From contig CAXXOU010000001.1 in NCBI GenBank assembly GCA_963677495.2, positions 544,001-608,000 of the forward strand: a stretch of 64,000 bases of DNA, written 5' to 3'. Below are positions 1-26,472 of the stretch, one piece after another. This DNA comes from Candidatus Cloacimonadales bacterium. Its GTDB lineage: Bacteria > Cloacimonadota > Cloacimonadia > Cloacimonadales > JAFGVF01. The translations under genes were made by a program, and so were the position numbers. Below the pieces are notes generated by a model. That model worked only from the letters and a program-made list of their open reading frames with translations, did no database searches and was not told where the DNA came from. Within the stretch, counting starts at the first letter, position 1. Each line of letters begins with the position of its first letter.

Positions 1-108
1 AATCTCTTTAAGCTCTTTGCTCAGCATTGAACTTCCTAAAGTAAAGAAACCGGCAGTAAATAGAGCAATAACGATAAGGAAAATAAGGTATTTTTGTCTC
101 ATATTCAT
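1..108 (-). CDS. 5' part of a probable PilO-like pilus alignment protein (runs off window edge)
   Basis: AGGAG RBS then ATG at 108. Translates MNMRQKYLIFLIVIALFTAGFFTLGSSMLSKELKEI (N-terminal TM helix). Directly follows pilM-pilN. Confidence 0.55.
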   Translation of the reverse strand, partial: MNMRQKYLIFLIVIALFTAGFFTLGSSMLSKELKEI

Positions 109-8375: not shown

Positions 8376-9995
8376 TTATTTTACAACAACAACTTTCTTA
8401 GTAGCTGTGTTTGAAGGTGAAGAAAGTCTGAAGAAATAGATACCGCTTCCGCAGTTTCTACCATTAGCATCAGTACCATCCCATTTGATTTCACGGCTTT
8501 CGTTTGCTGTGAAGTTACGTACAGCCTGACCAAGAACGTTGTAAACAGTAATGTTAGCAACTTCGCCGTCTTTAACTGAAACGTTAAGAGTTGTTTCTGT
8601 GCCGAATGGGTTTGGATATGCATTACCCATGATTGTACGAGTAACAGGAACTACAGATTCAGCATCGATAGTGATAGGTTCTGATTTGTGTAAGTCAATC
8701 TGACCATCGATATCAATACATTCTACCCAGTAGTAGTATGTGTAGTTATCTTCTACTTCATTATCAACAACTTTATAAGTTGAAGCTTGGTTGTTAGGAA
8801 CAACTGAAGTAAGTAAAGCAGCATCTTCAAATGCTTCTACATCTGTTCTGTATACGTTGAATGTAGCTAAGTCAGATTCTGAAGCTGTTTCCCATGTAAG
8901 TTCAACAGCAACGTCACCGTCTACAGCCATCTGTGCAGCTGCGAATGTAGCAAATTCAACAGCAAGAGGTTCTGGATTGTCCTGCCAGATTACGAAATCT
9001 TCAGCAGATTTTGCAACTGAGAAAGTACAATCGAATGTTACTGTACCAACACCCCAAACGATGTTAGCGATTGGTGCATTACCAAGATTTTCAAGCATAG
9101 CAAGACCTAAATCTGCAATAGTATGAGCTAATGTTAATGTAAGAACACCATCATAACTAATTGTGATCTGATACTGAGCATTGAAAGTATCTTCTGGTTG
9201 CATTCCTGAACCTGTACCGTCACCTGTTTCTGTTACTGTAGGAGTTGGAACGTCTTCTGGAACGTCACCGAATGTAACACCATCAGCTGGGTTATCATCA
9301 TAATCTACAGTTGTGAATGACCATACTGGGCAGTTTGGAGCATCACCGGCATTGTTAGTAGGAACAATCTGCCAGTAGTAAGTTGTACCATAATTAACTG
9401 TTGGGTTGTAGAAAAGGTCAGCCTGTTCCATAACCATAGTCATTGGTGGGTTATCTGTGCCAAAATAAATTTTGTATGCATCTGCATTAGGTTCTGCATT
9501 CCACTGAATGTCAGCATCAACTGCAACATCAACAGCTGCATCAGCAGGCATTAATAAAGTAGTTGCAGCAGGAGCTACAGGACCGTCACTCATCATTTGG
9601 ATTGGTGTATATGTCGCATCCCATACATCTGAACCAGCAGATGTTAATGTAATATCTACATCTAAATAGTCACCAGTTGAAACTTGTTCAATATGAATGC
9701 TTACAACTTGACCAGCAGCCCATGGGTTTGCAAAGTCAGCACATTGTACCTGAAGCATTGACATAGCACCTTGAGGACCCATAATTGATGGATAAAATGC
9801 AGTTGAAAGTGATGTAGTTGGATCCAAAATGTCACCAGGATGATCAACTAAACGTTCAGCAGTCCAAGTCACATCAGCTGCATCAACTGTTGCACCAGCA
9901 TTATTTGTAAAACCAACAATTGCAGTATGTGGTTGTGCAATTATAACGCCTACAAGACCGATTAATAAAAATAATGAAATCAGAATTTTTTTCAT
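8376..9995 (-). CDS. Secreted protein with Fn3-like domain and FlgD-Ig/T9SS-type C-terminal domain
   Basis: Signal peptide; YFGTDNPP..YYWQIVP..WSFTT; PLAVEFATF...LTWETASE; AYPNPF...YNVLGQ...WDGTD...SGIYF...KKVVVVK. Confidence 0.85.
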   Translation of the reverse strand: MKKILISLFLLIGLVGVIIAQPHTAIVGFTNNAGATVDAADVTWTAERLVDHPGDILDPTTSLSTAFYPSIMGPQGAMSMLQVQCADFANPWAAGQVVSIHIEQVSTGDYLDVDITLTSAGSDVWDATYTPIQMMSDGPVAPAATTLLMPADAAVDVAVDADIQWNAEPNADAYKIYFGTDNPPMTMVMEQADLFYNPTVNYGTTYYWQIVPTNNAGDAPNCPVWSFTTVDYDDNPADGVTFGDVPEDVPTPTVTETGDGTGSGMQPEDTFNAQYQITISYDGVLTLTLAHTIADLGLAMLENLGNAPIANIVWGVGTVTFDCTFSVAKSAEDFVIWQDNPEPLAVEFATFAAAQMAVDGDVAVELTWETASESDLATFNVYRTDVEAFEDAALLTSVVPNNQASTYKVVDNEVEDNYTYYYWVECIDIDGQIDLHKSEPITIDAESVVPVTRTIMGNAYPNPFGTETTLNVSVKDGEVANITVYNVLGQAVRNFTANESREIKWDGTDANGRNCGSGIYFFRLSSPSNTATKKVVVVK

Positions 9996-10765: not shown

Positions 10766-11234
10766 ATACTTTTTCTTTTTTCTGTACTTCGTTCATATGT
10801 TAATATTGTGTGAGCAGTCCTTTTTCACTGATTACCATTTATTTAGACACTTATACATCACTATTCTGCTAACTTCTTTTTCCATCGCTTTCTGCCTACC
10901 ATACAATAAATTAGAAACTTTTTTATTTGCTGTTGAAATTTTTCTATCTTTCAGCTTTCATTGAGCCTTAGAAATGATTTATTGTGCTGAAAAGTAGTTC
11001 AAAAGTGGATTTAAAACTTATATGTCTATCAGTGCCCTATCATAATTCTCATTCAAGGCTGACCAATGTACTATGAGTCTCTTGGGACTCACCTGTTCAG
11101 GATAACAAGAGACTGATATGAGAATGACAAGTATTAGCTAGTTGAGAGTCTCTTATTGTGATGGAGCAATGACACCCCGATGAGAAAAATCTAATTGGAA
11201 ATTATACCTCTCTTATCTACCAGATCCAGCATAC

Positions 11235-11320
11235 TTAACGGGTTGACCACGGGTAAACCGCAGGTTAACCACGGCTTACGTGGTTTGGGCGTGGTTTACC
11301 CGTGGATACTGCGTGGTTAA
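11235..11320. repeat. 11-bp-phased palindromic repeat array
   Basis: ACCACGG/ACCGCAG at 11246, 11257, 11268, mirrored by CGTGG at 11279, 11290, 11301, 11312. Confidence 0.9.
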
Positions 11321-11327
11321 ACAAGCA

Positions 11328-12197
11328 TCATATTCCGGACTTCTCTATAAGATTCAAGTACTTTTTACTCTCTGTTAAGTTCGGATTTATCTTGAATGCT
11401 ATTGATAGGTTTGATTTTGCTTCTTTTAAATCACCTAAATAATAATAGCAAATCCCTTTAATATTGTAAGCTCGTGCTAAATCTCTATCTTTTCGAAGAG
11501 TGCTTGCAAAGAAAGTTCTATCATACAATTTCAAATCTTTCTTATAGCTCTCGCTTTCAAGTTGATTAAGTAATGTTTCCTTAATCTCAGGTTTTTCATC
11601 AAGAGTTAATACATCCCTTTTAAGCATACCTTCATAACGTTTAACGAAGTTGGTCCTGAATGATATACCTTTACTAACAAGTTCAAGTGCTTTATCATAG
11701 TTTTCAAGCTCCATAAAGATGTTTGCAGCTCTAAATAAAGCATAATCAGGCTCAGGGGACACCCTTGAAGATTTAATGTAAAATTCAGCTGTTTTTTCTT
11801 TATTACCCTTCTTCTTGTACACTTCAGCAATATTCAAATAGTTAAGATGAGCTTGTTGAGGATATTTCTTTGCAAGCTTAGTAAGTAAATTTAATGCTTT
11901 ATCATAATGTCCAAGTTCTCTATGAGCAAGAGCAATATTACCAATTGAATCATTATTTTCAGGGTCTATCCTGAGTACATCATTGTATAATTTAATAGCT
12001 CGAGCATATCTTCTATCTTTTAAGGCTAAATCAGCATGTTCTTTTATACCTAGAGCTTCTTCAATTCTGCCTTGGTCCCCAATTTCCTGTAACCACTTTG
12101 GTTGCAACAATGTCATAATACCAAAGACTATCAATAGTGTCCAAACCCCATAAATAACCCCGGGAGTTATATAATCGAAAGGTTTCTTTTTAGACAT
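11328..12197 (-). CDS. Membrane-anchored TPR protein
   Basis: N-terminal TM helix and multiple TPR helices (AIKLYNDVLRIDP, AYNIKGICYYYLG). Start MSKKK at 12197 has a GAGG RBS. Confidence 0.85.
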   Translation of the reverse strand: MSKKKPFDYITPGVIYGVWTLLIVFGIMTLLQPKWLQEIGDQGRIEEALGIKEHADLALKDRRYARAIKLYNDVLRIDPENNDSIGNIALAHRELGHYDKALNLLTKLAKKYPQQAHLNYLNIAEVYKKKGNKEKTAEFYIKSSRVSPEPDYALFRAANIFMELENYDKALELVSKGISFRTNFVKRYEGMLKRDVLTLDEKPEIKETLLNQLESESYKKDLKLYDRTFFASTLRKDRDLARAYNIKGICYYYLGDLKEAKSNLSIAFKINPNLTESKKYLNLIEKSGI

Positions 12198-13614: not shown

Positions 13615-16600
13615 TTACTTTTTCTTCTCAGGTTCTGGAGTTGGTTCGATATATTCGACCCAAGTTATGTTTCTGAGAGGATTTGTACGAATACTAAATG
13701 TGTTAACAGCAACAGGTGTGTCACGAACAACACCATCTGTAGCTATAATCTTAGCGAAGTAATGGTTACCTGGAAGCATTGTTGGATCCATAGTAGCCAT
13801 ATTAGTAGGCCAAGTGCTTAAGAAGCTGGCTGGTCCAACTACGAAGTCAGGAGTTGTACCTGCATATACATCGTACATTGTTGCGCCAGTTACAGCATCC
13901 CATGAAAGTTCCATAAGGCCACTTACACCGTTATAGTTAAGTACAAGGTTTGTTGGAGCATCAAGACCGGTTGATGGTTCACCAAGACCGGCTTCAGTTG
14001 TTGCAAATGCAACAGCCATATCGTCAAGCATTGGTCCACCAACACCGTTGTTTCTATATTGGATACCAATTGTACCGTCAATGTTCTCGATACCGATACA
14101 TGCATCACCCTGGATAGTTGATGTACCTGATTCTGTATCAGCATTAAAATAGTTCTGATACTGAATCTTAATTCTTCCGTCAGGATAAAGAATCAACTGC
14201 ATATCCATATATTCATTAGCATCACCGTAATCATTCCACATCTCTACTGTGTAAACGAAGTTACCATTAGCATCAAGACCATAGTAAGGTACTGAAGGAA
14301 CGTTTGCTGTATGAAGATCCATACCAGCAAGAGCAATTACATCATTAGGTGAACCTGCATTTGGAATTGACATGCCTCCGGCAGTAGAACCGGTAGGACT
14401 AGTAAACATACAGTAACCATTTGTTCCGATATAGATCATATCATAATCATTACCGAAGTAGTTAAATGTGAATCCGATAGGAACTTCCATATAACCATCA
14501 TCAGCACTTGTATATGTAGGTGTAGAACCTGTTGCACTAATGTCTACCCAATCGAATGTTGGCTGATAGCCTAAGCCATTACCATCAACAGTACTGTTAG
14601 CAAAGTAGTAACCACCGTAAAGTGTACCATCTCCACCATAGTTAGGATTAGATTGAGTTGTGAAGCTGTAGTTAGCTGCTGGAGGGTTACCTTCACCATT
14701 AATGTTATAACCGGTTACATACCAGTAGTACATTGTTTCATAGCCAAGAGGTGAAGTTAAAGTAACACCAGTTACATTACCAACATCTGTCATTGTGAAG
14801 TTAACATTATCATCACTAACATAGAGATTATAACCATCAGCCCAAACGTCTGAAATCCACTGGAATGTAGTGTATTCACTAACACCAGTTGCTAAGTCAG
14901 CTGGAGTAGTCATTGCGATTTCGCCAGGAGTACTTGCATATGTTGTGAAGCTCCAAGTTGCATAACCTGATGCATTACCATTAGCATTGTAAGGGATAAC
15001 TTCCCAATAGTAAGTTGTTCCACCTGCAAGACCTGAAACATCTGTTGTAAGATCTACGCCATTGTCATACATGTTAAGTATGTTTGTTGGTGGGTTATCT
15101 GTACCGAAGTTAACATAGTAACCATCAGCGATTGTTGCAGCAGTCCACTCAAGTGTAACACCGAAATCTTGGTCTACAGCACCATCAAGAGGGTTAACTA
15201 CAGATGCAGTACCAGGATTTGTACCAACAGTAGTGAAGCTCCATACAGGGCAGTTTGCTGTGCTACCATTCTGGTTATAAGGCACAACCTGCCAGTAATA
15301 CATTGTTAATGGATCTAAGCCACTATATGCATAAGTAAGAGCAGTTCCTTGATCATCACCATTCACGATTGTTGTAGGTGGGTTATCAATACCGAAGTAT
15401 AAGTCATAACCATCAGCATTAAATGCTGCAGTCCATTCTAAGTTTCCATCAGGAAGCTGATCTAAAGCACCGTCAACAGGAGCAACAGCAGTTGCTGCGG
15501 CAGGTGGAGCTATATCATCAAATATATTAATATCATCAATAGAGATATCGCCATAGAAACTTGTAGATTCCATAGCTCTGAAATCTATTTGGATTGTTTG
15601 ACCAATGTATGCAGCAAGATCTACTTCAGCATACATCCAACCATCAGTTGCAGCACCCGCAGGGTTAGTTAAAACAGCAACAGATTGATTCATTGTTGAA
15701 CCTGAATATATGTCGATATGTAATTCTGAAGTATTAGATGAATCACCAATCCAGTAATATAAACCTAACATAGGAGCAGTAAGACCTGTAAGATCCATTA
15801 ACTCACTATAAAGATGAGCAGGTACAGTTTCAGGGGAAGAGTCATCGATTACCATCATGTAACCGCTGTTTCCTGTATGCTCTGCTGTAGCACCATGTCC
15901 ACCTAACTCACTATTACCAATTTCCCAACTGTCACCTGAAACAACAGGGTCGATTAACCAACCTGTTGGAAGTGTATCAGTATCGAATGATTGAGTATAA
16001 GGGAATGTTGTGTTTGTTTGAGTTGTATAAGTTGTGAAGCTCCATACAGGGCAGTTTTCTGCATCACCGGCAGCATTGTAAGGAATTACCTGCCAGTAAT
16101 ATGTAGTTCCACCAGCTAAAGCCATTACATCATATGTAGTAGCAACGCCATTGTCATAATCTCTCACAACATCTGTTGGTGGATTATCTGTACCAACACT
16201 AATCTTATAACCACCCGCTAAAGCATCAGTAGCCCAGCTAAGTTCTAAATAAAGAGGTTGGTCTATAGCTGCATCTGCAGGAGCAATTAAAGCTACAGGT
16301 GAAGGTGGATTAGCAGTTGTTGTGAAACTCCAAACTGCTGCACCGGTTGCATCACCATTAAAGTTATAAGGTACAACCTGCCAGTAATAAGTAGTACCGG
16401 AAGCTAAACCTGAATATGTATAAGTTAAAACATCACCTAAGTCAGTACCGTTAACCATATCTGTAGGAGGGTTATCTGTACCAAAATAAAGGTCATAACC
16501 ATCTGCTAACGCTGATGCGTTCCATTCTAATGTTCCACCAGAAGGTTGATCAACAGCAGCATCTGCAGGAGCAACGATAGTTACAGGGTCAGGAGTACTT

Positions 16601-18144
16601 GTGTCACCTTCACCGGTAACAGGGATGTTTTGTGTTGTACGAGTTGTATTATCTACAATTACGATAACATCATTTAATGCACCGCCAACTGTTGGTGAGA
16701 ATTCAACATCGAATGATGCATTAACACCAACACCAAGTGTAAGTGGATAAGTATTAGCATCAACAACTGTGAAGTCTGTACCTGTTTGCATTGCAATTGG
16801 TGTACTAATAACTAAGTCTGCACCACCCATATTAGTGATAGTAAATGTCTGAGTAGCAGTATCTCCAAGAAGAGTTAAACCATAGTCCCATGATTCATTA
16901 TCAATTGAGAATACAGGCACAGTAGGAACAGCTGCAAATTCCATTCTAATGTTAGGAATTGAGCTTTGGAGATAATTTGCTGCAGGTGGTGTTGCAGGAT
17001 CCGGGTTAGTGCTGTCACTACGATAAGCTAATGACTGAGCTGTTGCAGTTGCTGAGCAGAAGAATTCATCACTTGAGCTATCATAGCCACCAAGGTTTTC
17101 TTCAACAGCAATTACTAAGTTATCAACGTTGTTATAAACGAAAGGCATATCTAAAACAAATTCAATCCAGCCATCGCTATCAGGAAATGGATCAAGAGTT
17201 ACTGAACATACTTGAGTTAAGTTTGCTAATGGAATCCAATCTGAAGTTGTAGCAAACTCTGTGTTTGCTGTATGTCCCATATAGATAACCCAGTCAGTAG
17301 AAGCACTAAGATCTGTAGCACCATTATAATGATACCAAATCTTCTCTATTCTCTCACCAGTTCTATCAATGTCAGCTTGATAGTAAATTGATTGTGTATA
17401 ACTGTATCCATAATATGGTTCTATTGGAAGTGCCTGATTGGTGAGTGCTTCAAAGCCAATCTCAACAATATTTGCACCTAATTCTGTTGTATATGAATAA
17501 ACAGGGTTAGCCCACTCTAATCTTGTTAGAGTATTTTTCGAAACAACCTGCCAGTAATAAGTTGTATTTGTTGTAAGTCTACCAGGTGTATATGAACCTT
17601 GAGTACCTTCAGCACCGGCAACACCATCTGTTACTACTTGAGTTACAGGTGGGTTCACAGTATCAAAATAAAGGTCATAAGTTTCTGTTAAAGCACCCCA
17701 GTTCCATGTAACAGATGCATTTGTAGCAATAGCGCCGGCGCCATCTGCAGGAACAGCATCAGTAATTTCACCAGGTGTATTTGCATTATAATTCACAACT
17801 ATTGGAGTTGTGATACTTGCAGGTGTAGAACCACCAATTCCTGATTCAGCAATGTTAGCACCGAGATGGTCATATATAGTATATTCATTCTCAGAAGACC
17901 AACTACCTGCTGTATATGTAGTAGTGATTTCGTCACCGTTAACAACATCAAAGTTGTGTGATTCCGGTCCGTTACCTGAAGCAACTGTCAAACCGGTTAA
18001 TACGGCAGATCCGTTGACAAGGATGTCAAGAGAACCACCATTCCAACCATCTCCATAAGTATCATACAGCTCAACAGAGAATGTAAAAGCTGATAATGAT
18101 ACAACACAGATGATAAGTGATAATAAAATTAATATTCTTTTCAT
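13615..18144 (-). CDS. Giant acidic exoprotein A (~1509 aa): six Fn3-like repeats, ASH/Ig-like, MAM-like and other beta domains; adhesin or surface-layer-like
   Basis: Signal peptide MKRILILL after a GGAG RBS; repeated DGYDLYFGTDNPP...YYWQVVPYN...WSFTT; FTITNMGGADL; FPYTQSFD...GDISIDDI. Confidence 0.85.
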   Translation of the reverse strand: MKRILILLSLIICVVSLSAFTFSVELYDTYGDGWNGGSLDILVNGSAVLTGLTVASGNGPESHNFDVVNGDEITTTYTAGSWSSENEYTIYDHLGANIAESGIGGSTPASITTPIVVNYNANTPGEITDAVPADGAGAIATNASVTWNWGALTETYDLYFDTVNPPVTQVVTDGVAGAEGTQGSYTPGRLTTNTTYYWQVVSKNTLTRLEWANPVYSYTTELGANIVEIGFEALTNQALPIEPYYGYSYTQSIYYQADIDRTGERIEKIWYHYNGATDLSASTDWVIYMGHTANTEFATTSDWIPLANLTQVCSVTLDPFPDSDGWIEFVLDMPFVYNNVDNLVIAVEENLGGYDSSSDEFFCSATATAQSLAYRSDSTNPDPATPPAANYLQSSIPNIRMEFAAVPTVPVFSIDNESWDYGLTLLGDTATQTFTITNMGGADLVISTPIAMQTGTDFTVVDANTYPLTLGVGVNASFDVEFSPTVGGALNDVIVIVDNTTRTTQNIPVTGEGDTSTPDPVTIVAPADAAVDQPSGGTLEWNASALADGYDLYFGTDNPPTDMVNGTDLGDVLTYTYSGLASGTTYYWQVVPYNFNGDATGAAVWSFTTTANPPSPVALIAPADAAIDQPLYLELSWATDALAGGYKISVGTDNPPTDVVRDYDNGVATTYDVMALAGGTTYYWQVIPYNAAGDAENCPVWSFTTYTTQTNTTFPYTQSFDTDTLPTGWLIDPVVSGDSWEIGNSELGGHGATAEHTGNSGYMMVIDDSSPETVPAHLYSELMDLTGLTAPMLGLYYWIGDSSNTSELHIDIYSGSTMNQSVAVLTNPAGAATDGWMYAEVDLAAYIGQTIQIDFRAMESTSFYGDISIDDINIFDDIAPPAAATAVAPVDGALDQLPDGNLEWTAAFNADGYDLYFGIDNPPTTIVNGDDQGTALTYAYSGLDPLTMYYWQVVPYNQNGSTANCPVWSFTTVGTNPGTASVVNPLDGAVDQDFGVTLEWTAATIADGYYVNFGTDNPPTNILNMYDNGVDLTTDVSGLAGGTTYYWEVIPYNANGNASGYATWSFTTYASTPGEIAMTTPADLATGVSEYTTFQWISDVWADGYNLYVSDDNVNFTMTDVGNVTGVTLTSPLGYETMYYWYVTGYNINGEGNPPAANYSFTTQSNPNYGGDGTLYGGYYFANSTVDGNGLGYQPTFDWVDISATGSTPTYTSADDGYMEVPIGFTFNYFGNDYDMIYIGTNGYCMFTSPTGSTAGGMSIPNAGSPNDVIALAGMDLHTANVPSVPYYGLDANGNFVYTVEMWNDYGDANEYMDMQLILYPDGRIKIQYQNYFNADTESGTSTIQGDACIGIENIDGTIGIQYRNNGVGGPMLDDMAVAFATTEAGLGEPSTGLDAPTNLVLNYNGVSGLMELSWDAVTGATMYDVYAGTTPDFVVGPASFLSTWPTNMATMDPTMLPGNHYFAKIIATDGVVRDTPVAVNTFSIRTNPLRNITWVEYIEPTPEPEKKK

Positions 18145-18159
18145 ATTGGATAACTCCAT

Positions 18160-18514
18160 ATATTAAAGTTAGAAAGCATTTGTTATGTACATACGATAGA
18201 ATACAAAACCCCTGTTCCGTATTCTAATTAGAATTCGAATTTCTCCTTGTAGTCCTGATGCAAAATATTATTGCACCACCCTGATAATTAATCCTTTCGT
18301 TGTCTCTCGAGCCGTGTGGTTATGTGGATGTGTTTTGGTGTGTTTGGCTCTTCAAAACAACTATTTCAGATCTTATTTCTTGGAGCGTTTCCTATCGCTC
18401 CAGTTAGAAATCTACCTTCTTTTAATCATGCTTTAGCAACATTCGTCCTACCTCCTGTTAACTAAAAAGCATGGATACAATGCTAATTTGGAATCATATC
18501 AAAATATCTGTCAA
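18160..18514 (-). ncRNA. Putative structured 5' leader RNA, copy A (with TTGACA at 18509-18514)
   Basis: Colinear conserved blocks and covarying stems shared with 23872-24179; G-U pairs work only on the mRNA strand. Confidence 0.6.
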
Positions 18515-18684
18515 GAGTTTTTTCTCTTTCTCCAATCTTAGATTCCTGTTTGACAGCTTCCACTATACTCCTATTTATCTGAAACAATTCGTTTTGTGAG
18601 TTGTATTCATAAATTACTATTTTCCAAATCAAGTACATAACAATGACCCCTCTTCTAAAAATCTATCCAACAAATCGCAGTCAT

Positions 18685-18778
18685 CCCACTGTTCTCCCAC
18701 TGTGCACGCACTGTGAACCCAGTGAAACAGTGGGTTGGCAGTGCCTTCACAGTGCGTGCACAGTGCAAATACAGTGCG
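18685..18778. repeat. 11-bp-phased palindromic repeat array
   Basis: CACTG at 18687, 18698, 18709 (CAGTG at 18720), mirrored by CAGTG at 18728, 18739, 18750, 18761, 18772. Confidence 0.9.
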
Positions 18779-18826
18779 TTGATTGATAGCGCAGTAAAAG
18801 TGAGTGTAAAGAGCAGTAAATATAGC

Positions 18827-19497
18827 TAAGTTGTTGCAAAAAGCGCTGTGTATGCCACTTTCGGACTTGCGTTGCAGCGATAGCGTGACGCGAGAACGAA
18901 ATCAGGGATTTGCGACTTCGAGGTGCATTTCAGGAAGTCCGTTGCCTTATCAGGCCGACAAACTCCCTGAAATGCCGTAAGTTGTTGCAAAAGGCACTGT
19001 CAATGTCACTCTGAGCGGAGTGAATGGAGTAGTATTCCTAATAGCTGCAAATTGTCTAACACTTCCCTCTGGGAAGCATAATAATAGCCATGTGTCCACG
19101 ACGCATGGTCCGGATTATAGATTGATACAATCCTACATGGATTGCATTGTTCCAATAACATCTCTAATAGTGCAATCCTCATCGGATTGGATGCAAGGTG
19201 ATTCAGGTCCATGGGTCGTGGACCCATTATATATTCCTATCGGAAAAAGCTGTTCTTTAGCTGGGAAACTAAAGCTATCGGAGAGATACATTCGACTGCG
19301 TTCGCAAAACTCACTTCGCTCAGTATGACAGGTCGGACTTGCACCGCAACGAAGCGTGGGGCGAGAACGAAAACATCGGATTACGACTTCGATTTCCAGA
19401 ATTAGCAAGTCACATTTCATTGCGACTCACTTCTTTTTCCAAAGTGCATTTCAGGAAGTCCGTATTCGCATTCACTCTGACAAACTCCCTGAAATGC
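18827..19497. mobile_element. Composite REP/MITE-like region: a ~150-bp unit in tandem, the second copy carrying nested inverted-repeat inserts
   Basis: taagttgttgcaaaa at 18827 and 18978; tcggacttgc...cgacttcga at 18861 and 19333; gcatttcagg...cctgaaatgc hairpin at 18923-18975 and 19444-19497; 20-bp inverted repeats at 19004-19023 and 19311-19330. Confidence 0.7.
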
Positions 19498-19508
19498 AGT
19501 AATGAAAA

Positions 19509-19532
19509 AGGGTGACTCGATCGAGTCACCCT
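19509..19532 (-). terminator. Intrinsic terminator after giant exoprotein B
   Basis: Perfect 24-bp palindrome AGGGTGACTCGATCGAGTCACCCT with a U-run on the minus strand. Confidence 0.8.
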
Positions 19533-19554
19533 ATATATTTTAGTTTATATTAAC

Positions 19555-22500
19555 CTATTTCTTCTTCTCAACTTCCGGAGTAGGCTCAATGTACTCTACC
19601 CAAGTAATAGTTCTTAATGAACGTCTTACTGAGAAAGTAGAAGGAGCACTTACAACTGTGCGAGATGGAGCTTCGTCAGTAGCTGTTACTTTAGCGAATC
19701 TGTAGTTGCCATCAAATGTAGTAGCAGGAACAGAAGCTGTAGTTTCAGTAACAATTCCGATTAAGGTATTCACATCGCATGTGAAATCAGGAGTAGTACC
19801 AACATAAACGTTGTAAGCAGTAGCACCTGTTACAGCATCCCAGTTAAGTACAAGGTCACCTGCAAGATATTCAAGTGTGAAGTTAGCAGGAGCATCAAGA
19901 ACAACAGGACCTGAGCCATCTGCAAGAGCTTCAGCAGATGTTGCAAAAGCAACTGCCATATCGTCAAGCATTGGACCACCAACACCATTGTTTCTATACT
20001 GAATACCTACTGTACCATCAGCGTTCTCGATACCGATACAAGCATCACCTTGGATAGTTGAAGTACCTGATTCTGTACCACCATTTGAGTAGTTACGATA
20101 TTGGATTTTAATTCTGCCATTTGTATAAATGATAACCTGCATGTCCATGAACTCATCATAGTCAGAATAGTCATTCCACTGTTCAACAGTATAAACGAAG
20201 TTACCATCTACATCGTATCCATAGAAAGGATTAGTAGTAGCAACCTGAGTAGTATGCATATCCATAGCTGAAAGTGCAATTACATCGTTTGGTGTTCCAG
20301 ATGCAGGAATTGACATTGAGCCACCTGTTGAGCCAACAGGACTTGAGAACATAACGTAACCATTTGTTCCAAGGTAGATCTGTGTGTAATCATTACCAAA
20401 GTAGTTGAATGTGAAGTTTAAATCAACAGTAGCATAACCATCATCAGCGCTTGTATATGTTGGAGCATTTGCTTCAACCACATCAACCCAACTGAATGTA
20501 GGTTGATAGCCTAAACCATTACCATCTGGTACACTATTTGCGAAGTAGTAACCACCATAAAGTGTACCGTCTCCACCGTAGTTTGGATTAGATTGTGTTG
20601 TGAAAGTTCTGATAGCATCAGGAGCAACACCTTCACCATTTCTGTTATAACCGGTTACATACCAGTAATATTGAGTCTCATAGTTAAGAGCTGTTGTAAG
20701 TGTAACAGCAGTTACAACACCAACATCAGTTTGAACATAGTTTTCACCATCATCACTAATGTAAAGGTTGTAGCCATCTGCCCATACATCACTATACCAT
20801 GATAAAGTTGGATATTCGCTTACACCTTCAGCTGCATCTGCAGGATTGTTGTATGTTATAGCTTCAGGAGCAGCAGCATAAGTTGTAAAGCTCCAAACAG
20901 GGCAATCAGTAGCATTACCGTTTGCATTGTAAGGAATTACCTGCCAGTAATATGTAGTTGCACCACTAAGTTCAACTGCATCATATGTAGTAGCTGTACC
21001 CATGTCTGTCATGTCTTCAACATCTGTAGGTGGATTATCAGTACCAAAGTTAAGATAATAACCATCAGCAACTGCATCAGTATTCCATTCAAGAGTTAAG
21101 TTGAAGTCTTGATCAATAGCTTCATCTGCAGGAGATACTAAAGCTACAGGAGCAGGAGGAGTTGCGTTAGTTGTGAAACTCCAAACAGGGCAATCTACAG
21201 CACTACCATTAGCGTTGTAAGGTACAACCTGCCAGTAATAAGTAGCACCACCGGTAAGAGCACTGTAAGCATAAGTTGTTACGTTACCTTGATCAGCACC
21301 GTTAACGATATCTGTTGGTGGGTTATCAGAACCGAAGTATAAGTCATAACCATCAGCAAATGGAACAGCATTCCATTCAAGTGTTCCTTCTGTAAGCTGT
21401 TCAGTAGCTGCATCAACTGGTGCAACAACAGTAGCTACTGCAGGAGGATTTACGTTGTTAAAAATCTCAACGTCATCAATTGAAAGGTCTCCAAAATAAC
21501 TTGAAGATTCCATTGCTCTAAAATCGAAGCTAACAGTTTGACCTGCAAACGCTGTTAAAGAAACAACACCTTGCTGCCAACCTAAGTCACCATCTGCATC
21601 AGTGAATACTGCAACAGATTCAGTAGTTACTTCGCCATTGATTACATCAATGTGTAATTCAGAAGTGTTAGAATTATCACCAATCCAATACCAGAATGAC
21701 ATTACAGGAGAAGTAAGACCTGCAAAATTAAAGTCTGGAGTATAAAGGTGTGCCGGAACTGTTTCAGGTGATGAGTCATCAAGAACCATCATGTAACCAC
21801 TGTTACCTGTATGATCAGATGTTGCACCGTGTCCACCGGCTTCATTGTTTGCTACTTCCCAACCATTGCTACTTGCATCAGGATCAGCTACCCACTCTAG
21901 TGGTAAGTCGGCAGTATCAAATGATTCAGTATATGGGAAAACAGAAACTATTGGATCAAATCCTTCACCTTGAACTGGAATGTTACGTGTAGTTCTTGTA
22001 ATATTATCAATAATAACAATATTATCATTAACAACGCCGACTGATGTTGCATTGAAAGTAACATCAAAGCTCGCAGACATTGTTGAAGGAATTGTTAAAG
22101 GATATGTATTGGCATCTGTAAGTGTGAAGTTAGCACCTGTTTCTAAAGCGATAGGATCGTTTATAACAAGATCAGCACCACCATTATTAGTAATAGTGAA
22201 AATTTGTGCATCACTATCTGCATTCACATAAACCATACCAAAGTTATAAGATTCTGGATTAATAGAGAACTCAGGCATTTCAGGAACATCACCGAATTCC
22301 ATTCTAATGTTTGGGATATATGCTTTCAAAGTTCCTGATGGAGGATCAGATGGATCAGGATTATTACTATCATTACGGTAAGTAATAGATCTGTTTCCAA
22401 CTACAGAAGTACAGAAGAACTCGTCTGAGCTTGAATCATAGCTTGATTGGTTTTCCTCAACAGCAATAACTAAATTATCAACATTGTTATAAGTAAATGG

Positions 22501-23856
22501 TGAGTCTAAAACAAGCTCAATCCAAGAATCTTCTGTTGGAATCGGATCAAGTGTTTGAGCATAAACCTGAGTTAACTGTTCTGCAGGTAACCAAGCATCT
22601 GTAGTGCCAAACTCTTCCAGATTAGTATGAGCCATGTAGATAACCCATTCAGAGCTACTATCAAGATTGGAAGCACCATTGTAATGGAACCAAATCTTCT
22701 CAATTCTTTGGTCAGCCATATCTATTTCACTTTGTAAATAGATACTCTGAGTGTAAGTATAACCATAGAATGGTTCAATTGGAAGACCCTGATTTGTTTC
22801 AGCTCCGGTACCAATAGAAACAATGTTATCACTCAATACTGTTGTGAATGAATAAGTTTCTTCAGTATCATTGGCAGCATTAGAGTTCTTTGAAACCACT
22901 TTCCAGTAGTAAGTTGTACTTTGAGCTAAACGACCTGGGTTATAAGCACCTGAACCGTTAACAGTACCATCAGTAACAACTTGTACCACAGGTGGATTTA
23001 CAGAGTCAAAGTAAAGATCATATGTTTCTGCTAATGTATCGAAATCCCAGCTAATCTGAGTATTAACTGGTTGATCTGTAGCACCATTTAAAGGTAAAGC
23101 ATTAGTAACTTCTCCTGGTGTCATATCAATATCAAAACTGTATACAGCACTAGCAGCTTGTAAACGAGCTGATGAATTTTTAGCAACGACATACCAATAA
23201 TATGTACCTTCACTAAGAGCACTATCCGGGATATAATTACCAGCAGTACCTTCTTCACCGGCTGTTCCATCTGTAACAACCTGTGTTACAGGAGGGTTGA
23301 CAGTGTCGAAATAGAGATCATAAGTTTCTGTTAATGCTCCAAATGTCCAGCTAAGTTCAGGAGACAAAGTTGTAACAGTAAATGCATCTGTAGGAAGCAT
23401 GTTAGAAACAGCTGTTGGTGCAGCAGGGTTATCAATAACTGCAGTCATGTCAATCTGATAATTACCTTCATTTGAGCCGTAACCTTCAACTATTACATAA
23501 TAATCTGTATTAGCATCTAAAGTTAGGTCATAAAGTGCTGAACGGTTACCAATTGCATCATCATTATAATGTAACATAGTAGTTTGGTCAGCTGCATAAA
23601 CATGTAAATATGTATCGAAGCTTGATTCTCCAAGAGAGATATCAAGATCTGTAATAGCAAATGGAGAGTTAATTCTGTAGAAAGCATCAGCACTTGCATT
23701 TTCGATTGTATTAGTCAAAGTGTTTGTATCACCTGTATCAGTGTATGGGAAATCAGTATCTGTTACTAAAACTGCAGTAGCAAAGTCATCTCCGCCAATT
23801 GCAAATAATCCCACTGATAATACAGCTAACATCATGATTAAAATCATTTTTCTCAT
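19555..23856 (-). CDS. Giant acidic exoprotein B (~1433 aa), paralogue of A with a different (PPC-like) N-terminal domain and five Fn3-like repeats
   Basis: Signal peptide MRKMILIM after a GGAG RBS; same domain set as 13615..18144; N-terminal GGDDFATA...FDTYLHVY...YYVIVEGY. Confidence 0.85.
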   Translation of the reverse strand: MRKMILIMMLAVLSVGLFAIGGDDFATAVLVTDTDFPYTDTGDTNTLTNTIENASADAFYRINSPFAITDLDISLGESSFDTYLHVYAADQTTMLHYNDDAIGNRSALYDLTLDANTDYYVIVEGYGSNEGNYQIDMTAVIDNPAAPTAVSNMLPTDAFTVTTLSPELSWTFGALTETYDLYFDTVNPPVTQVVTDGTAGEEGTAGNYIPDSALSEGTYYWYVVAKNSSARLQAASAVYSFDIDMTPGEVTNALPLNGATDQPVNTQISWDFDTLAETYDLYFDSVNPPVVQVVTDGTVNGSGAYNPGRLAQSTTYYWKVVSKNSNAANDTEETYSFTTVLSDNIVSIGTGAETNQGLPIEPFYGYTYTQSIYLQSEIDMADQRIEKIWFHYNGASNLDSSSEWVIYMAHTNLEEFGTTDAWLPAEQLTQVYAQTLDPIPTEDSWIELVLDSPFTYNNVDNLVIAVEENQSSYDSSSDEFFCTSVVGNRSITYRNDSNNPDPSDPPSGTLKAYIPNIRMEFGDVPEMPEFSINPESYNFGMVYVNADSDAQIFTITNNGGADLVINDPIALETGANFTLTDANTYPLTIPSTMSASFDVTFNATSVGVVNDNIVIIDNITRTTRNIPVQGEGFDPIVSVFPYTESFDTADLPLEWVADPDASSNGWEVANNEAGGHGATSDHTGNSGYMMVLDDSSPETVPAHLYTPDFNFAGLTSPVMSFWYWIGDNSNTSELHIDVINGEVTTESVAVFTDADGDLGWQQGVVSLTAFAGQTVSFDFRAMESSSYFGDLSIDDVEIFNNVNPPAVATVVAPVDAATEQLTEGTLEWNAVPFADGYDLYFGSDNPPTDIVNGADQGNVTTYAYSALTGGATYYWQVVPYNANGSAVDCPVWSFTTNATPPAPVALVSPADEAIDQDFNLTLEWNTDAVADGYYLNFGTDNPPTDVEDMTDMGTATTYDAVELSGATTYYWQVIPYNANGNATDCPVWSFTTYAAAPEAITYNNPADAAEGVSEYPTLSWYSDVWADGYNLYISDDGENYVQTDVGVVTAVTLTTALNYETQYYWYVTGYNRNGEGVAPDAIRTFTTQSNPNYGGDGTLYGGYYFANSVPDGNGLGYQPTFSWVDVVEANAPTYTSADDGYATVDLNFTFNYFGNDYTQIYLGTNGYVMFSSPVGSTGGSMSIPASGTPNDVIALSAMDMHTTQVATTNPFYGYDVDGNFVYTVEQWNDYSDYDEFMDMQVIIYTNGRIKIQYRNYSNGGTESGTSTIQGDACIGIENADGTVGIQYRNNGVGGPMLDDMAVAFATSAEALADGSGPVVLDAPANFTLEYLAGDLVLNWDAVTGATAYNVYVGTTPDFTCDVNTLIGIVTETTASVPATTFDGNYRFAKVTATDEAPSRTVVSAPSTFSVRRSLRTITWVEYIEPTPEVEKKK

Positions 23857-23871
23857 AATAGATAACTCCAA

Positions 23872-24179
23872 ATAATTAATAATTTTGGAAAATAGAGAAT
23901 CTAATCCGGTAACTACCTTATAATTTCCTCTCTAATCTCCTTGTAACTTTGGTGTAAACATTTTGATACACCAATCCTGTAATTTATCTGAAAGCGCCAG
24001 AGGGGTCATGTGGGTTTGTGGATGTTTGTGGAATTATTCCCCTGACAACCATGACAGATCTTATTAAATGGGATTTATTCGTCTTAATTGTGATGTATCT
24101 TCCTACCAAAGATTATACATCTAAATAAATATCTCCCTTAACTAACGTAAAATTTCGGCTTTTACCTAAATAGTGTCAA
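23872..24179 (-). ncRNA. Putative structured 5' leader RNA, copy B (with TTGACA at 24174-24179)
   Basis: Same block order and stems as 18160-18514. Confidence 0.6.
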
Positions 24180-24281
24180 GAACTTTTTCCCATGTATAAT
24201 GTATTTATACAACAAATTACACTTGTAAGTAAAGAAACTGAATTGGTCTCACCTACATAACCCTCTAATAATAGATAAATA

Positions 24282-24308
24282 AACAGGTCGGATTTAATCC
24301 GACCTGTT
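24282..24308 (-). terminator. Intrinsic terminator of the ECF operon
   Basis: AACAGGTCGGATT-t-AATCCGACCTGTT hairpin. Confidence 0.75.
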
Positions 24309-24357
24309 CTTTCTCAATAGTAATACTATTTTGAATTTATATCTGCAAGGGGGTTAC

Positions 24358-24894
24358 CTATTTATCGTCACAATCTCCGCAATCATCACCATTACAACCT
24401 CTCATACCTTTACGCATCATAGGTTTCATCTCTTTGAATTCTTGCTTCTGCTCATCTGTCAGCTTGGAATATACATCTTCCATCATCTTGATGCGACTAA
24501 GATGAATATCTCCTTTAGCTTCTGTGAGCTGTTCTGAAATCTTTGCAGCTTTCTTAAATTCAGCATCCTTCATATACTTATGCATATCCATTTCAAGGTT
24601 CTTGATTTCTGCACGCTTTAGATTAGCAGCTTTCTTATGTGTATCACGAATATCTCTAATCTCTTTTTCCTGTTTATCTGTTAACTCTAATCTGTTAATA
24701 CACATCATCATTCTGTCTCTGTGCATTCCATTATGATGCATACCAGCACCTTTCATTCCTTTGTGTTGCATCATACCACCACGGCTCATTCCACAATCTT
24801 CACCTTTCATCATTCCCTTTCTATGCATGCCTTGGGCAAACATTGATGCAACTAATACTGTCATTACGGCTATTACTAATACTATCTTTTTCAT
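24358..24894 (-). CDS. Spy/CpxP-family periplasmic chaperone
   Basis: Signal peptide, Met/Gly/His-rich N-terminus, LELTDKQ and KLTDEQK (LTxxQ) motifs. Confidence 0.85.
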   Translation of the reverse strand: MKKIVLVIAVMTVLVASMFAQGMHRKGMMKGEDCGMSRGGMMQHKGMKGAGMHHNGMHRDRMMMCINRLELTDKQEKEIRDIRDTHKKAANLKRAEIKNLEMDMHKYMKDAEFKKAAKISEQLTEAKGDIHLSRIKMMEDVYSKLTDEQKQEFKEMKPMMRKGMRGCNGDDCGDCDDK

Positions 24895-25424
24895 TTTATT
24901 CTCCTATGCTCTTGTTCATCTTTTCTTCCTCTATTCTTACGAGGATATCTGTTCTTTAAATGTCTCTTAAACATCTCTCTGCGCTTCTTTATCTCTTCCG
25001 GAGATGAGTTCTTTCGAACTTCAATCAACTTCTCAGAAATGCAGTTACTAAGATCTTCTGAATTTTTATTCATTACTAATTTTATGGAATCAAGCTTTGT
25101 ATAGGATGGCTCATCCTTCATAAGCTCTTTAAAGAAAGCACTTTTAAGTTCATCCATTCTATCCATATTATTTCTTAAACTTTCCGACATAAACTTATCT
25201 TTCATTCCACTCAGCATTTCATGCTCAGGACCTCTTGGACCTCTGTGACCATCAGGACCTTTATGTTTGAGTCCTCCCATGTGAGGTGGTCTTTCGAAAG
25301 GATGTGGGAATGGACGGCCTTGATGCTTAGCTATTTGAACTCCTCTAAAGATAAAAGCTGTTACAAATGCCAGGTTAAAGACCAACGATATTATCAACAA
25401 GATTCTGTATTTTCTACTAATCAT
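24891..25424 (-). CDS. Membrane-anchored periplasmic heavy-metal sensor / Spy-like protein
   Basis: LLIISLVFNLAF N-terminal anchor, Pro/His-rich linker and helical domain; usual partner of an ECF/anti-sigma pair. Confidence 0.65.
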   Translation of the reverse strand: MISRKYRILLIISLVFNLAFVTAFIFRGVQIAKHQGRPFPHPFERPPHMGGLKHKGPDGHRGPRGPEHEMLSGMKDKFMSESLRNNMDRMDELKSAFFKELMKDEPSYTKLDSIKLVMNKNSEDLSNCISEKLIEVRKNSSPEEIKKRREMFKRHLKNRYPRKNRGRKDEQEHRRIK

Positions 25425-25425
25425 G

Positions 25426-25842
25426 TTATTCCCCCATCAGTGAACTATATAAGAAAGTATCTTCTACTGATTCAAGCGTTGATACTTCAGTTGTTGTTTC
25501 TGTTGTAGTTGTTATGGTTGCTGTTGACCAGAATGCTGTAAAGATTCCAAGATAGAGCGATAAAGCTACTGCTGCTCCGTAAGAAACAAACTTCAAGCTA
25601 AACCCATGTCTTTTCTTCTCTTCCATTGCTCTTGCTTCCGCTAAGATTCTGGTCATCATGTAATCAGGGACATCTTCATCAGGAGTAGAAAGCATAATGT
25701 TATCCAGTAACTCCATATCTTTTACAATGGATTGACAATTAGGGCATGCCTGAAGATGAGCTTCAAAGCTCAATCTTTCCTTGCTTGTCATCTCATCTGC
25801 AAGATATCTGTTTACTGTTTTTTCATCATTTTTACACTTCAT
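25426..25842 (-). CDS. Zinc-finger (zf-HC2) anti-sigma factor
   Basis: MKC...YLADEM...FEAHLQACPNC (HxxxCxxC) followed by a TM helix. Confidence 0.88.
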   Translation of the reverse strand: MKCKNDEKTVNRYLADEMTSKERLSFEAHLQACPNCQSIVKDMELLDNIMLSTPDEDVPDYMMTRILAEARAMEEKKRHGFSLKFVSYGAAVALSLYLGIFTAFWSTATITTTTETTTEVSTLESVEDTFLYSSLMGE

Positions 25843-25843
25843 T

Positions 25844-26356
25844 TTAAAACTCCTTAACAATATTGACACCGGAAACCTCAATTTCCTTCTCAATAATTTT
25901 TCTTAATCTTTTCTTTGCTCTTACTAGCTTGGATTCTACTGCTTTAACTGAGCATCCAAGCATTTCTGCCATCTCTTTATAACTAAGCTTCTTGTAATAC
26001 TGTAATTCTATCAGCATTGCAACTTTAGATGGCAACTGTACTATAGCCCTCTTAACTACATCATTATAGATGTAACTCTCTTCTTTCGGAGCGTGTATAT
26101 TGTCGAGTACAAAGTCCGGTGCTGACGATGTTCTCTTGCTCTTTTTCAAGTGATTAATCCCCTGGTTCCGAGCTGCTCTATATAGATATGCGAGTTCTTT
26201 ACCTTTCTCTACATCATCTATTTTAGCATAGAACTTCAGGAATACACTCTGAGTAAGATCCTCAGCATCTTCCTTCTGCTTAACAAACTTCAGAAGATAA
26301 TTGTATATCCTCTTTTGGTTTACTCTAACGACGTCTTCGAATAACTCTTTTTTCAT
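25844..26356 (-). CDS. ECF RNA polymerase sigma factor
   Basis: DAEDLTQSVFLK and YLYRAARN (region 2); LSYKEMAEMLG..VKAVESKLVRAKKRL (region 4). Confidence 0.92.
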   Translation of the reverse strand: MKKELFEDVVRVNQKRIYNYLLKFVKQKEDAEDLTQSVFLKFYAKIDDVEKGKELAYLYRAARNQGINHLKKSKRTSSAPDFVLDNIHAPKEESYIYNDVVKRAIVQLPSKVAMLIELQYYKKLSYKEMAEMLGCSVKAVESKLVRAKKRLRKIIEKEIEVSGVNIVKEF

Positions 26357-26372
26357 ATACGCTCCACCTATA

Positions 26373-26399
26373 TAGACAGGCTTAAGCAAATTCCCTTCA
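26373..26399 (-). promoter_or_regulatory. Possible autoregulatory ECF promoter
   Basis: Minus strand TGAAGG-16 bp-GTCTA just upstream of the ECF gene RBS. Confidence 0.3.
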
Positions 26400-26472
26400 T
26401 TTTTTTTTGATAATTTATTTAACGAAATGATTCAGGCAACTATTTAATTACTATTATGGCACTTCACTTTCC

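Follow-up and report, generated by a model that had tools for sequence, protein, structure and literature searches.

Two tandem giant genes of a Candidatus Cloacimonadales bacterium are each preceded by a conserved, structured 5' leader whose core is an RNA motif outside Rfam, with a narrow distribution. The DNA that we analysed is a 64,000-nucleotide window of this genome (G000:C1:544001-608000; coordinates below count from its first nucleotide), in which both genes, A and B, lie on the minus strand. A preliminary description of the two spacers ahead of these genes had put forward a covarying leader RNA as a candidate cis-regulatory element. The homologues that we recovered, their covariation and the outcome of the Rfam comparison bear out a conserved, structured, cis-located RNA that is absent from Rfam; that this RNA controls the giant genes, and how it would do so, we infer from its anatomy and context.

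In each leader, the elements follow one another in the order P1-P3 stem with CA-rich loop, hairpin P4, the Shine-Dalgarno (SD)-like sequence AAGGAGA without a usable start codon, a hairpin of variable sequence, and the true SD. The core of leader A (18241..18378, minus strand, as are all leader features given here) comprises P1 (18372-18368/18294-18290), P2 (18361-18354/18306-18299) and P3 (18350-18346/18313-18309), with the CA-rich loop at 18345-18314, followed by P4 (18278-18271/18263-18256) and AAGGAGA at 18248-18242. The core of leader B (23935..24066) is built likewise, with P1 at 24059-24055/23990-23986, P2+P3 at 24050-24039/24003-23993, the CA-rich loop at 24038-24004, P4 at 23974-23967/23956-23949 and AAGGAGA at 23942-23936. 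Leader A also forms hairpin P0 (18427..18473), whose loop holds the SD-like GGAGGUAGGA (GUAGGA at 18451-18446), and hairpin P0b (18381..18402), with the stem UGGAGCG/CGCUCCA and the loop AUAGGAAA. In leader B, P0 (24070..24137) consists of an outer stem, GGGAGAUAUUU/GAAUAAAUCCC, and an inner hairpin (24126-24087) with GGUAGGA (24106-24101). The variable hairpin P5 is found at 18197..18226 in leader A, where it has 13 base pairs (bp), differs in sequence between copies and is followed by no U-tract, and at 23887..23940 in leader B, where the GGAGA of the SD-like block pairs with UUUCC.

The sequence blocks from which the leader RNA was originally proposed lie where they had been placed: TTGACA (18514-18509 and 24179-24174, minus strand), UUAGUUAA (18465-18458 and 24145-24138), AAUAAGAUCUG (ending at 18367 and 24055), ACAUCCACA-N3-CCACA (18331-18315 and 24025-24009), the UGGUGCA/UGGUGUA hairpins (18278-18256 and 23974-23949), UACAAGGAGA (ending at 18242 and 23936), the UAGA...UCUA hairpins (18226-18197 and 23940-23887) and UGGAGUUAUC ahead of the ATG. 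The stems around the CA loop also fold as they had been drawn. Of these blocks, UUAGUUAA and the closing pairs of the UAGA...UCUA hairpin occur only in the two copies of this genome and are missing from the copies in other species.

We searched for further copies by pattern and by covariance model, which was necessary as a BLAST search of leader A against its own genome misses leader B. A strict pattern for the loop (ACATCCACA-N1-6-CCACA) matches the 3.4 Mb genome only twice, in these two leaders, and its reversed control does not match at all, indicating that the resemblance of the leaders exceeds chance. A looser pattern, in which the loop was joined to ACAAGGAG and one mismatch was allowed, was run over 232 genomes of the phylum and matched ten of them including G000. 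The convincing matches were in G000 (two), G112 (one) and G113 (three), all of genus g1; seven more one-mismatch matches, in seven other genomes, had none of the other blocks within the strings matched, and the reversed control gave two. Covariance model R1, which covers the core (139 positions), added a seventh copy, in G112. All seven copies have E <= 7e-15 with this model, and two weak extra matches appear in G000 at E 0.5-0.75. The copies, five of which lie beyond this genome, are spread over three of the four species of the genus, and fall into an A type and a B type. Leader A scores 144.9 bits with R1 and 170.2 bits with a second model, R2; leader B scores 107.5 bits with R1, and is found at E = 3.9e-08 with R2, a model built from two A-type copies only.

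Model R2 arose from a difficulty of alignment. MAFFT alignments (A4 and A6) misaligned the 3' strands of P2 and P4, and RNAalifold on A4 returned a partial structure; R2 was therefore built from G000_A and G113_1 only, and the other five copies were realigned by it. This two-copy model recovered all five (E 3.7e-18 to 1.1e-4). In the resulting alignment standard pairs fill 94.0% of 168 cells, and 11 of the 25 pairs have changed on both sides (three in P2, four in P3 and four in P4). None of 500 shuffles matched any of five pairing measures, and when the 3' partner was slid by 1-3 columns only 34-44% of cells paired and 2-3 pairs changed on both sides. The covariation that had been proposed from the two leaders thus exceeds both the shuffle and the slid-column controls, with the caveat that it comes from seven related sequences in an alignment fitted to the structure. 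P1 (A type, GAUCU/GGAUU; B type, AUCUG/CAGAU) shows no both-side change and so is neither supported nor contradicted.

All seven cores fold into the same architecture, whether or not the loop is constrained to be unpaired. The hairpins outside the core behave similarly: the P0 stem differs in sequence between G000_A and G113_1 and retains its pairing, the outer GGGAGAU/...UCCC stem persists in the three B-type copies around an inner 7-bp stem that differs in sequence, and a hairpin equivalent to P0b is present in the remaining A-type copies (folds inspected by eye). The mRNA strand is the one favoured by the folding z-scores and also by the G-U pairs, which had been described as valid on that strand only. 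In the sense direction z was -3.47, -3.39, -2.94 and -1.54 for the A-type cores and -0.29, -1.86 and +0.08 for the B-type cores, and in the antisense direction it ranged from -1.03 to +0.59 (for leader A, +0.22 antisense against -3.47 sense). Thermodynamics thus support the A-type fold well and lend no support to the B-type fold.

The CA-rich loop is, in all seven copies, a G-free run of 28-35 nt composed of 34-44% C, 46-57% A and 6-16% U. The genome has a GC content of about 38%, and only 14 runs of such composition occur on its two strands, the loop of leader A among them. The loop is predicted to be unpaired with a probability of 0.91-1.00 in six copies and 0.59 in the seventh. Its sequence is invariant over ACAUCCACA...CCACA (with N1-3 between) while the surrounding stems vary freely, suggesting that it is a single-stranded site read by its sequence. 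We considered partners for it within the leader and elsewhere in the genome. Within the leader, the best duplexes formed at different places in each copy, and no conserved pseudoknot emerged. Nine-nucleotide complements of the loop number 34 in the genome including the two leaders, where a rough estimate expects about 50 by chance; one of them, at C3:31474, was taken up as a candidate trans-acting small RNA (sRNA) and dropped, being antisense to an open reading frame (ORF) of 80 aa, and a second 'intergenic' one lies at C4:1280993.

Comparison with Rfam 15 gave no match at the gathering score anywhere in the window, and none of the 24 matches obtained at E <= 10 in 17900-24500 falls inside the leaders (18145-18514 and 23857-24179). 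The preliminary description had not recognised the element as a TPP, SAM, cobalamin, glycine, c-di-GMP or T-box RNA, and this comparison, which returned no family, concurs. A limited search of the literature found no publication on the element, from which we do not claim that it is absent from print.

Within everything searched, the core is confined to one genus. Model R1 found nothing in the other two genera of the family (eight genomes), nothing at E <= 0.1 outside genus g1 among 151 genomes sampled from the order, and no match in the genome G111 (83% complete, in about 450 contigs), which represents the remaining species of the genus. Run with its filters off over 25 loci that surround homologues of the giant genes in the family, it gave nothing better than E = 1.3. 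A 20-base pattern returned at least 118 stretches from a metagenome collection, for which it is too short, so that chance matches dominate; among the 80 examined, none was a true copy by R1 (best E 0.14). The same pattern returned at least 117 stretches from a collection of genome contigs, and two of the 80 examined were true. Neither was a new copy, since both belong to one Candidatus Cloacimonadales record and have bit scores equal to those of two known copies, and none of these 80 was a copy outside the phylum. With seven copies in one genus, the element carries correspondingly less weight.

The leaders have been conserved between species at least as well as the genes behind them. In the syntenic region of G113, BLAST aligned leader A with its orthologue at 76.4% identity over 399 nt and leader B at 72.3% over 267 nt, where the adjoining coding DNA has 64-74% identity and the other spacers (18524-19928, 24189-24430 and 10824-11688) have no match. 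Moreover, the DNA for the N-terminal part of protein B finds its match in the gene that follows the A-type leader of G113, and the N-terminus of gene A has no counterpart in that region. Leaders that are conserved as well as or better than coding DNA, and that precede different N-terminal domains, argue for selection rather than a residue of duplication. The syntenic segment itself (G113:C1:2636600-2649700) carries three tandem giant genes with leaders of their own, one of A type and two of B type, in place of the two genes found here, and leader type and N-terminal domain have been recombined between the two genomes.

Both spacers are the DNA from the promoter to the start codon of a monocistronic giant gene. 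In leader A, the -35 element TTGACA (18509..18514) has an A-tract before it (18518-18523) and is followed 17 nt on by the -10-like CCAAATT (18485..18491), which predicts a transcription start site (TSS) at about 18480. The promoter of leader B (24150..24179) has TTGACA at 24179-24174 and the -10-like GAAATTT at 24156-24150, with a predicted TSS at about 24145. CTTGACA is invariant in all seven copies, with an A-tract upstream and an A/T-rich, CCAAATT-like stretch 17 nt downstream. A count over 998 upstream regions of the genome gives 368 occurrences of TTGACA and 104 of its reverse complement, and genome-wide the positions that follow TTGACA are enriched in A at +18..21 and in T at +22..24; from this we conclude that the leaders use the ordinary promoter type of the organism in a strong form. 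Judged by these promoters, transcription would start upstream of all the conserved blocks. The promoter type of this genome itself looks hybrid, with a TTGACA -35 element and then, some 17-19 nt on, an AAAATTT-like stretch and not TATAAT.

Terminator-like hairpins at 24309-24281, 19532-19509 and 13598-13569 make genes A and B separate transcription units. The first of these (24281..24309, minus strand, 13 bp) stands at the end of the LTXXQ/Spy-like gene just upstream of promoter B, and the other two follow genes B and A; in G113, two leader copies likewise directly follow terminator-like hairpins of the preceding genes. At the other end of the leaders, an ORF finder had placed the first starts of the two giant ORFs at 18159 (13615-18159, gene A) and 23871 (19555-23871, gene B), and the spacers were accordingly first taken to be bounded at 18160 and 23872. 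However, these starts (ATG 18159 and TTG 23871) overlap the SD, and the upstream ATG is out of frame in the orthologue G113_1. The real starts are likely ATG 18144 and ATG 23856, each of which has GGAG 9 nt before it and a signal-peptide-like sequence after it (SD 18157-18154 and ATG 18144-18142 within 18142..18157 for leader A; SD 23869-23866 and ATG 23856-23854 within 23854..23869 for leader B). The leaders therefore extend 15 nt beyond the limits first given. Counted from the predicted promoters, leader A is transcribed over about 320 nt and leader B over about 275 nt, in place of the 330-350 nt proposed before.

The genes so delimited, A (13615..18144, about 1509 aa) and B (19555..23856, about 1433 aa), are tandem paralogues whose proteins share 63% identity over 802 aa and 57% over 422 aa, and both proteins have MAM, Ig-like, fn3 and 'choice-of-anchor' domains. 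Their codon adaptation, measured against the ribosomal-protein cluster, lies at the 98.6th (A) and 99.4th (B) percentile of 2144 ORFs, which together with the consensus -35 element and its A-tract suggests that both are highly expressed.

The leaders are also rich in SD-like sequences. GGAG is found 25 times in the seven, where 6.1 occurrences would be expected, and AGGA 33 times (expectation 11.6). RGGAGA follows P4 in all seven copies, and AAGGAGA stands 80-90 nt upstream of the true SD. A second group, GGAGG/GUAGGA, lies near the predicted 5' end; GUAGGA is present 5' of the core in every copy, and P0 presents it within GGAGGUAGGA or as GGUAGGA. In four of the seven copies the GUAGGA of the P0 loop is predicted to be unpaired with a probability of 0.83-0.99. 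This organism uses SD sequences widely, with GGAG before 41% of ORF starts and in 5% of control windows. The pairing partners of the true SD vary between copies, and no conserved helix sequesters it. A terminator scan found no terminator-like site in either leader, and the seven leaders share no conserved SD-preceded small ORF or leader peptide.

Parts of this 5' module recur elsewhere in the genome. Three other giant paralogues (C1 at about 410.7 kb and 517.4 kb, and C3 at about 263.7 kb) share a different leader of about 100 nt, which starts with GGUUAG and continues with a hairpin, AUGCAUAGGGAGAUUCAA...AUUAUGCAU. Ahead of these three and of a fourth paralogue (C1 at about 969.2 kb) stand the GUUAG and GGGAGAU/GGUAGGA blocks that in leaders A and B lie close to the predicted TSS, and a 5'-terminal SD-like module may be common to the giant-gene class.

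Our leading proposal, which we hold tentatively, is that the leader is a post-transcriptional cis module that combines ribosome-holding SD-like sites with a loop on which a trans-acting factor lands. Each leader would be transcribed from its own strong, housekeeping-type promoter. The long P1-P3 stem would keep the G-free, CA-rich loop open, the SD-like elements would, as in STAB-SD, retain 30S subunits on the untranslated leader, and the hairpins would shield the 5' part of the leader from RNase E/G and RNase Y, both of which are encoded in the genome. A 4.5 kb mRNA so held and shielded would be long-lived and heavily loaded with ribosomes. The CA loop would serve as a single-stranded landing pad that a trans-acting factor reads by sequence, allowing the paralogues to be adjusted together; candidates for this factor are the lone RRM-1 protein of the genome, Rho, or an sRNA with a short seed.

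Several observations weigh against this proposal. Eleven other giant paralogues in the genome carry TTGACA 78-199 nt before their ATG, one paralogue with such a short leader is 69% identical to gene A over a 423-aa query segment, and the scanned paralogue loci lack the core; a long leader is therefore not required for proteins of this kind. The true SD is predicted to be unpaired with a probability of only 0.16-0.61, which suits repression as well as enhancement. The enzyme that STAB-SD blocks is probably absent, since the C-terminal domain of RNase J (PF17770, the only domain searched) has no match in this 99.46% complete genome. By the z-scores given above, the three B-type cores are not more stable than their shuffles, and the codon adaptation figure is open to confounding by composition. 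As for the loop, a simple stabiliser would leave its invariant 17-nt sequence unexplained, and a complement of 11 nt or more (G-U allowed) is absent from the rest of the genome.

A Rho-dependent attenuator, which we judge unlikely, would use the same loop differently: as a rut-like Rho entry site, where ribosome loading, or some factor covering the loop, would decide whether Rho stops the transcript ahead of the gene. Enterobacteria offer known cases of long leaders under Rho-dependent control. Rho is encoded here (PF07497, E = 3.7e-31), the loop is G-free and C-rich, a composition rare in this genome, and is predicted to be unpaired, and the leader is untranslated over about 275-320 nt. However, rut sites are usually cited as 60-80 nt, and the G-free stretch falls below that length. 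Rho recognises composition and not sequence, so the invariance of ACAUCCACA...CCACA would go unexplained, and SD-like sites that attract ribosomes would counteract Rho.

The stabilising-leader proposal has a more specific form, which we consider rather a long shot: that the invariant loop is the recognition element of the lone RRM-1 protein, acting as a global binder of single-stranded RNA, and that its binding couples the output of the paralogues to the state of the envelope, as sensed by the syntenic ECF sigma/anti-sigma/Spy-like operon. If this were true, the loop would provide bacterial RRM-1 regulators with their first defined RNA target motif, and the leader would be a new form of leader control for surface coats.

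A ligand-sensing riboswitch, in which a small molecule bound by the core switches translation or stability of the surface-protein mRNAs, is an improbable form of control here. A conserved, covarying 5' untranslated region (UTR) structure outside Rfam and upstream of costly genes would fit such a switch, but invariance is confined to a single terminal loop that lacks G and to the 5' strand of P1, and does not mark a junction or internal-loop pocket; the internal loops that separate P1, P2 and P3 are not the same in the A and B types. The leader offers neither a terminator-like site nor a conserved SD-sequestering helix through which to act, and it precedes only paralogues of one structural protein, in one genus, and not metabolic or transport genes.

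We are equally doubtful of processive antitermination of the EAR or put RNA kind, by which the folded leader would modify RNA polymerase to read through genes of 4.3-4.5 kb. The great length of the genes, the promoter-proximal position of a structured element and the presence of a second NusG-like gene (the genome has two) fit this explanation. However, no antitermination family of Rfam matches, the NusG paralogue is on another contig, away from the locus, and translated genes need little protection from Rho; eleven other giant paralogues have TTGACA 78-199 nt before their ATG, and the scanned paralogue loci lack the core.

No better placed is the idea that the 5' UTR gives rise to an independent small RNA, for example a sponge for a GGA- or CA-binding protein, to which the link with the downstream gene would be secondary. 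The many GGA/GGAG motifs in loops recall protein-titrating RNAs, and the same core precedes different N-terminal domains. Against it, CsrA (PF02599) and Hfq have no match in the genome, no terminator-like site follows the core, and each of the seven copies is immediately followed by a giant gene whose product has a signal peptide.

That the resemblance has no function, being a residue of tandem duplication between paralogues or a set of DNA-level protein-binding sites (GATC and AGATCT do lie within one conserved block), is very improbable and appears largely excluded by the compensatory changes, the strand-specific structure, and a conservation between species that equals or exceeds that of coding DNA, is uncoupled from the N-terminal domain and is not shared by the unalignable spacers nearby.

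Among known systems, long folded stabilising leaders offer the nearest parallels to the module that we propose, and the ompA 5' UTR of Escherichia coli is one of this kind. In the Lactobacillus slpA leader, as treated in passages of PMC3666127, an envelope protein gene likewise combines a strong promoter, biased codons and a long folded leader, with abundance being a prediction in our case; the same passages connect long structured 5' UTRs with S-layer mRNA half-lives of 14-15 min (PMC3666127). Our leaders differ from those of slpA and ompA in having no sequence or structural homology to them, and those are not known for a long invariant single-stranded loop. The comparison does not imply that the proteins encoded here, known from their genes alone, form an S-layer. 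In STAB-SD of Bacillus thuringiensis cry3A, too, an SD-like sequence stands in the 5' UTR of a massively expressed gene, well ahead of the real SD, and initiates no translation; according to passages of PMC4113751, this element stabilises cry3A mRNA through 30S binding, which blocks RNase J1. Apart from the unmatched RNase J domain, our leaders depart from STAB-SD in their large covarying structure and invariant CA loop.

Several GGA motifs in hairpin loops, one of them overlapping an SD, are a feature of CsrA/RsmA-controlled leaders and Rsm sponge RNAs as well, but the CsrA gene was not found in this genome. As a conserved, covarying noncoding element upstream of one gene class the leader resembles the orphan motifs of Rfam, from which it differs in its absence from Rfam 15 and in a far narrower range. 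With regard to the trans-acting factor, the genome, which has one RRM-1 protein and no Hfq or CsrA match, resembles those Bacteroides that have RbpB, an RRM-1 protein that binds preferentially in single-stranded regions, as passages of PMC11697453 report. These passages name no CA-rich recognition motif for RbpB, its binding motifs being given in supplements (PMC11697453). The RRM-1 gene of this genome (C4:1446204-1446410) and the leader are linked by our proposal only.

Cloacimonadota is an uncultured phylum that is abundant in anaerobic digesters. Post-transcriptional control in it is almost unexplored, and this genome is without matches to the usual RNA chaperones, Hfq and CsrA. The motif offers a concrete handle on such control, since it precedes genes that probably encode the major surface proteins of the cell. 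It supplies a defined RNA for pull-downs of its binding factor, a candidate expression cassette for the lineage (the promoter with a leader predicted to be stabilising), and a test case for the protection of long mRNAs that encode giant proteins.

Upstream of the giant genes, also on the minus strand, lie genes for an ECF sigma factor (25844-26389), a zf-HC2 anti-sigma factor (25426-25893), a 177-aa ORF without known function (24891-25424) and the LTXXQ/Spy-like protein, a periplasmic chaperone (24358-24894), which precedes gene B. This operon (24358-26389) adjoins the giant-gene array and is syntenic in G113, where 2649980-2651925 matches 24431-26405 of the window at 69.5%; it could be an envelope-stress module tied to the surface proteins.

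Proteins A and B share a C-terminal tail, ITWVEYIEPTPE(P/V)EKKK (encoded at 13615-13670 and 19555-19610). Pfam and NCBIfam models find no type IX secretion system (T9SS) C-terminal sorting domain in either protein, and the common tail could be a different sorting signal. A neighbouring gene does encode a T9SS C-terminal sorting domain (8376-9995, minus strand, 539 aa); it has the top codon adaptation among the 2144 scored ORFs, and probably encodes a further secreted protein of very high abundance.

Much of the 1 kb between the terminator of gene B and promoter A is filled by a dispersed repeat of about 360 nt (18660-19030), which has no match within the syntenic G113 region. Copies with 77-92% identity stand at 40 or more sites in the genome (95 BLAST matches at E <= 1e-5). 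With its imperfect palindrome of 47-nt arms (18678-18785) and internal direct repeats, it resembles a miniature inverted-repeat transposable element.

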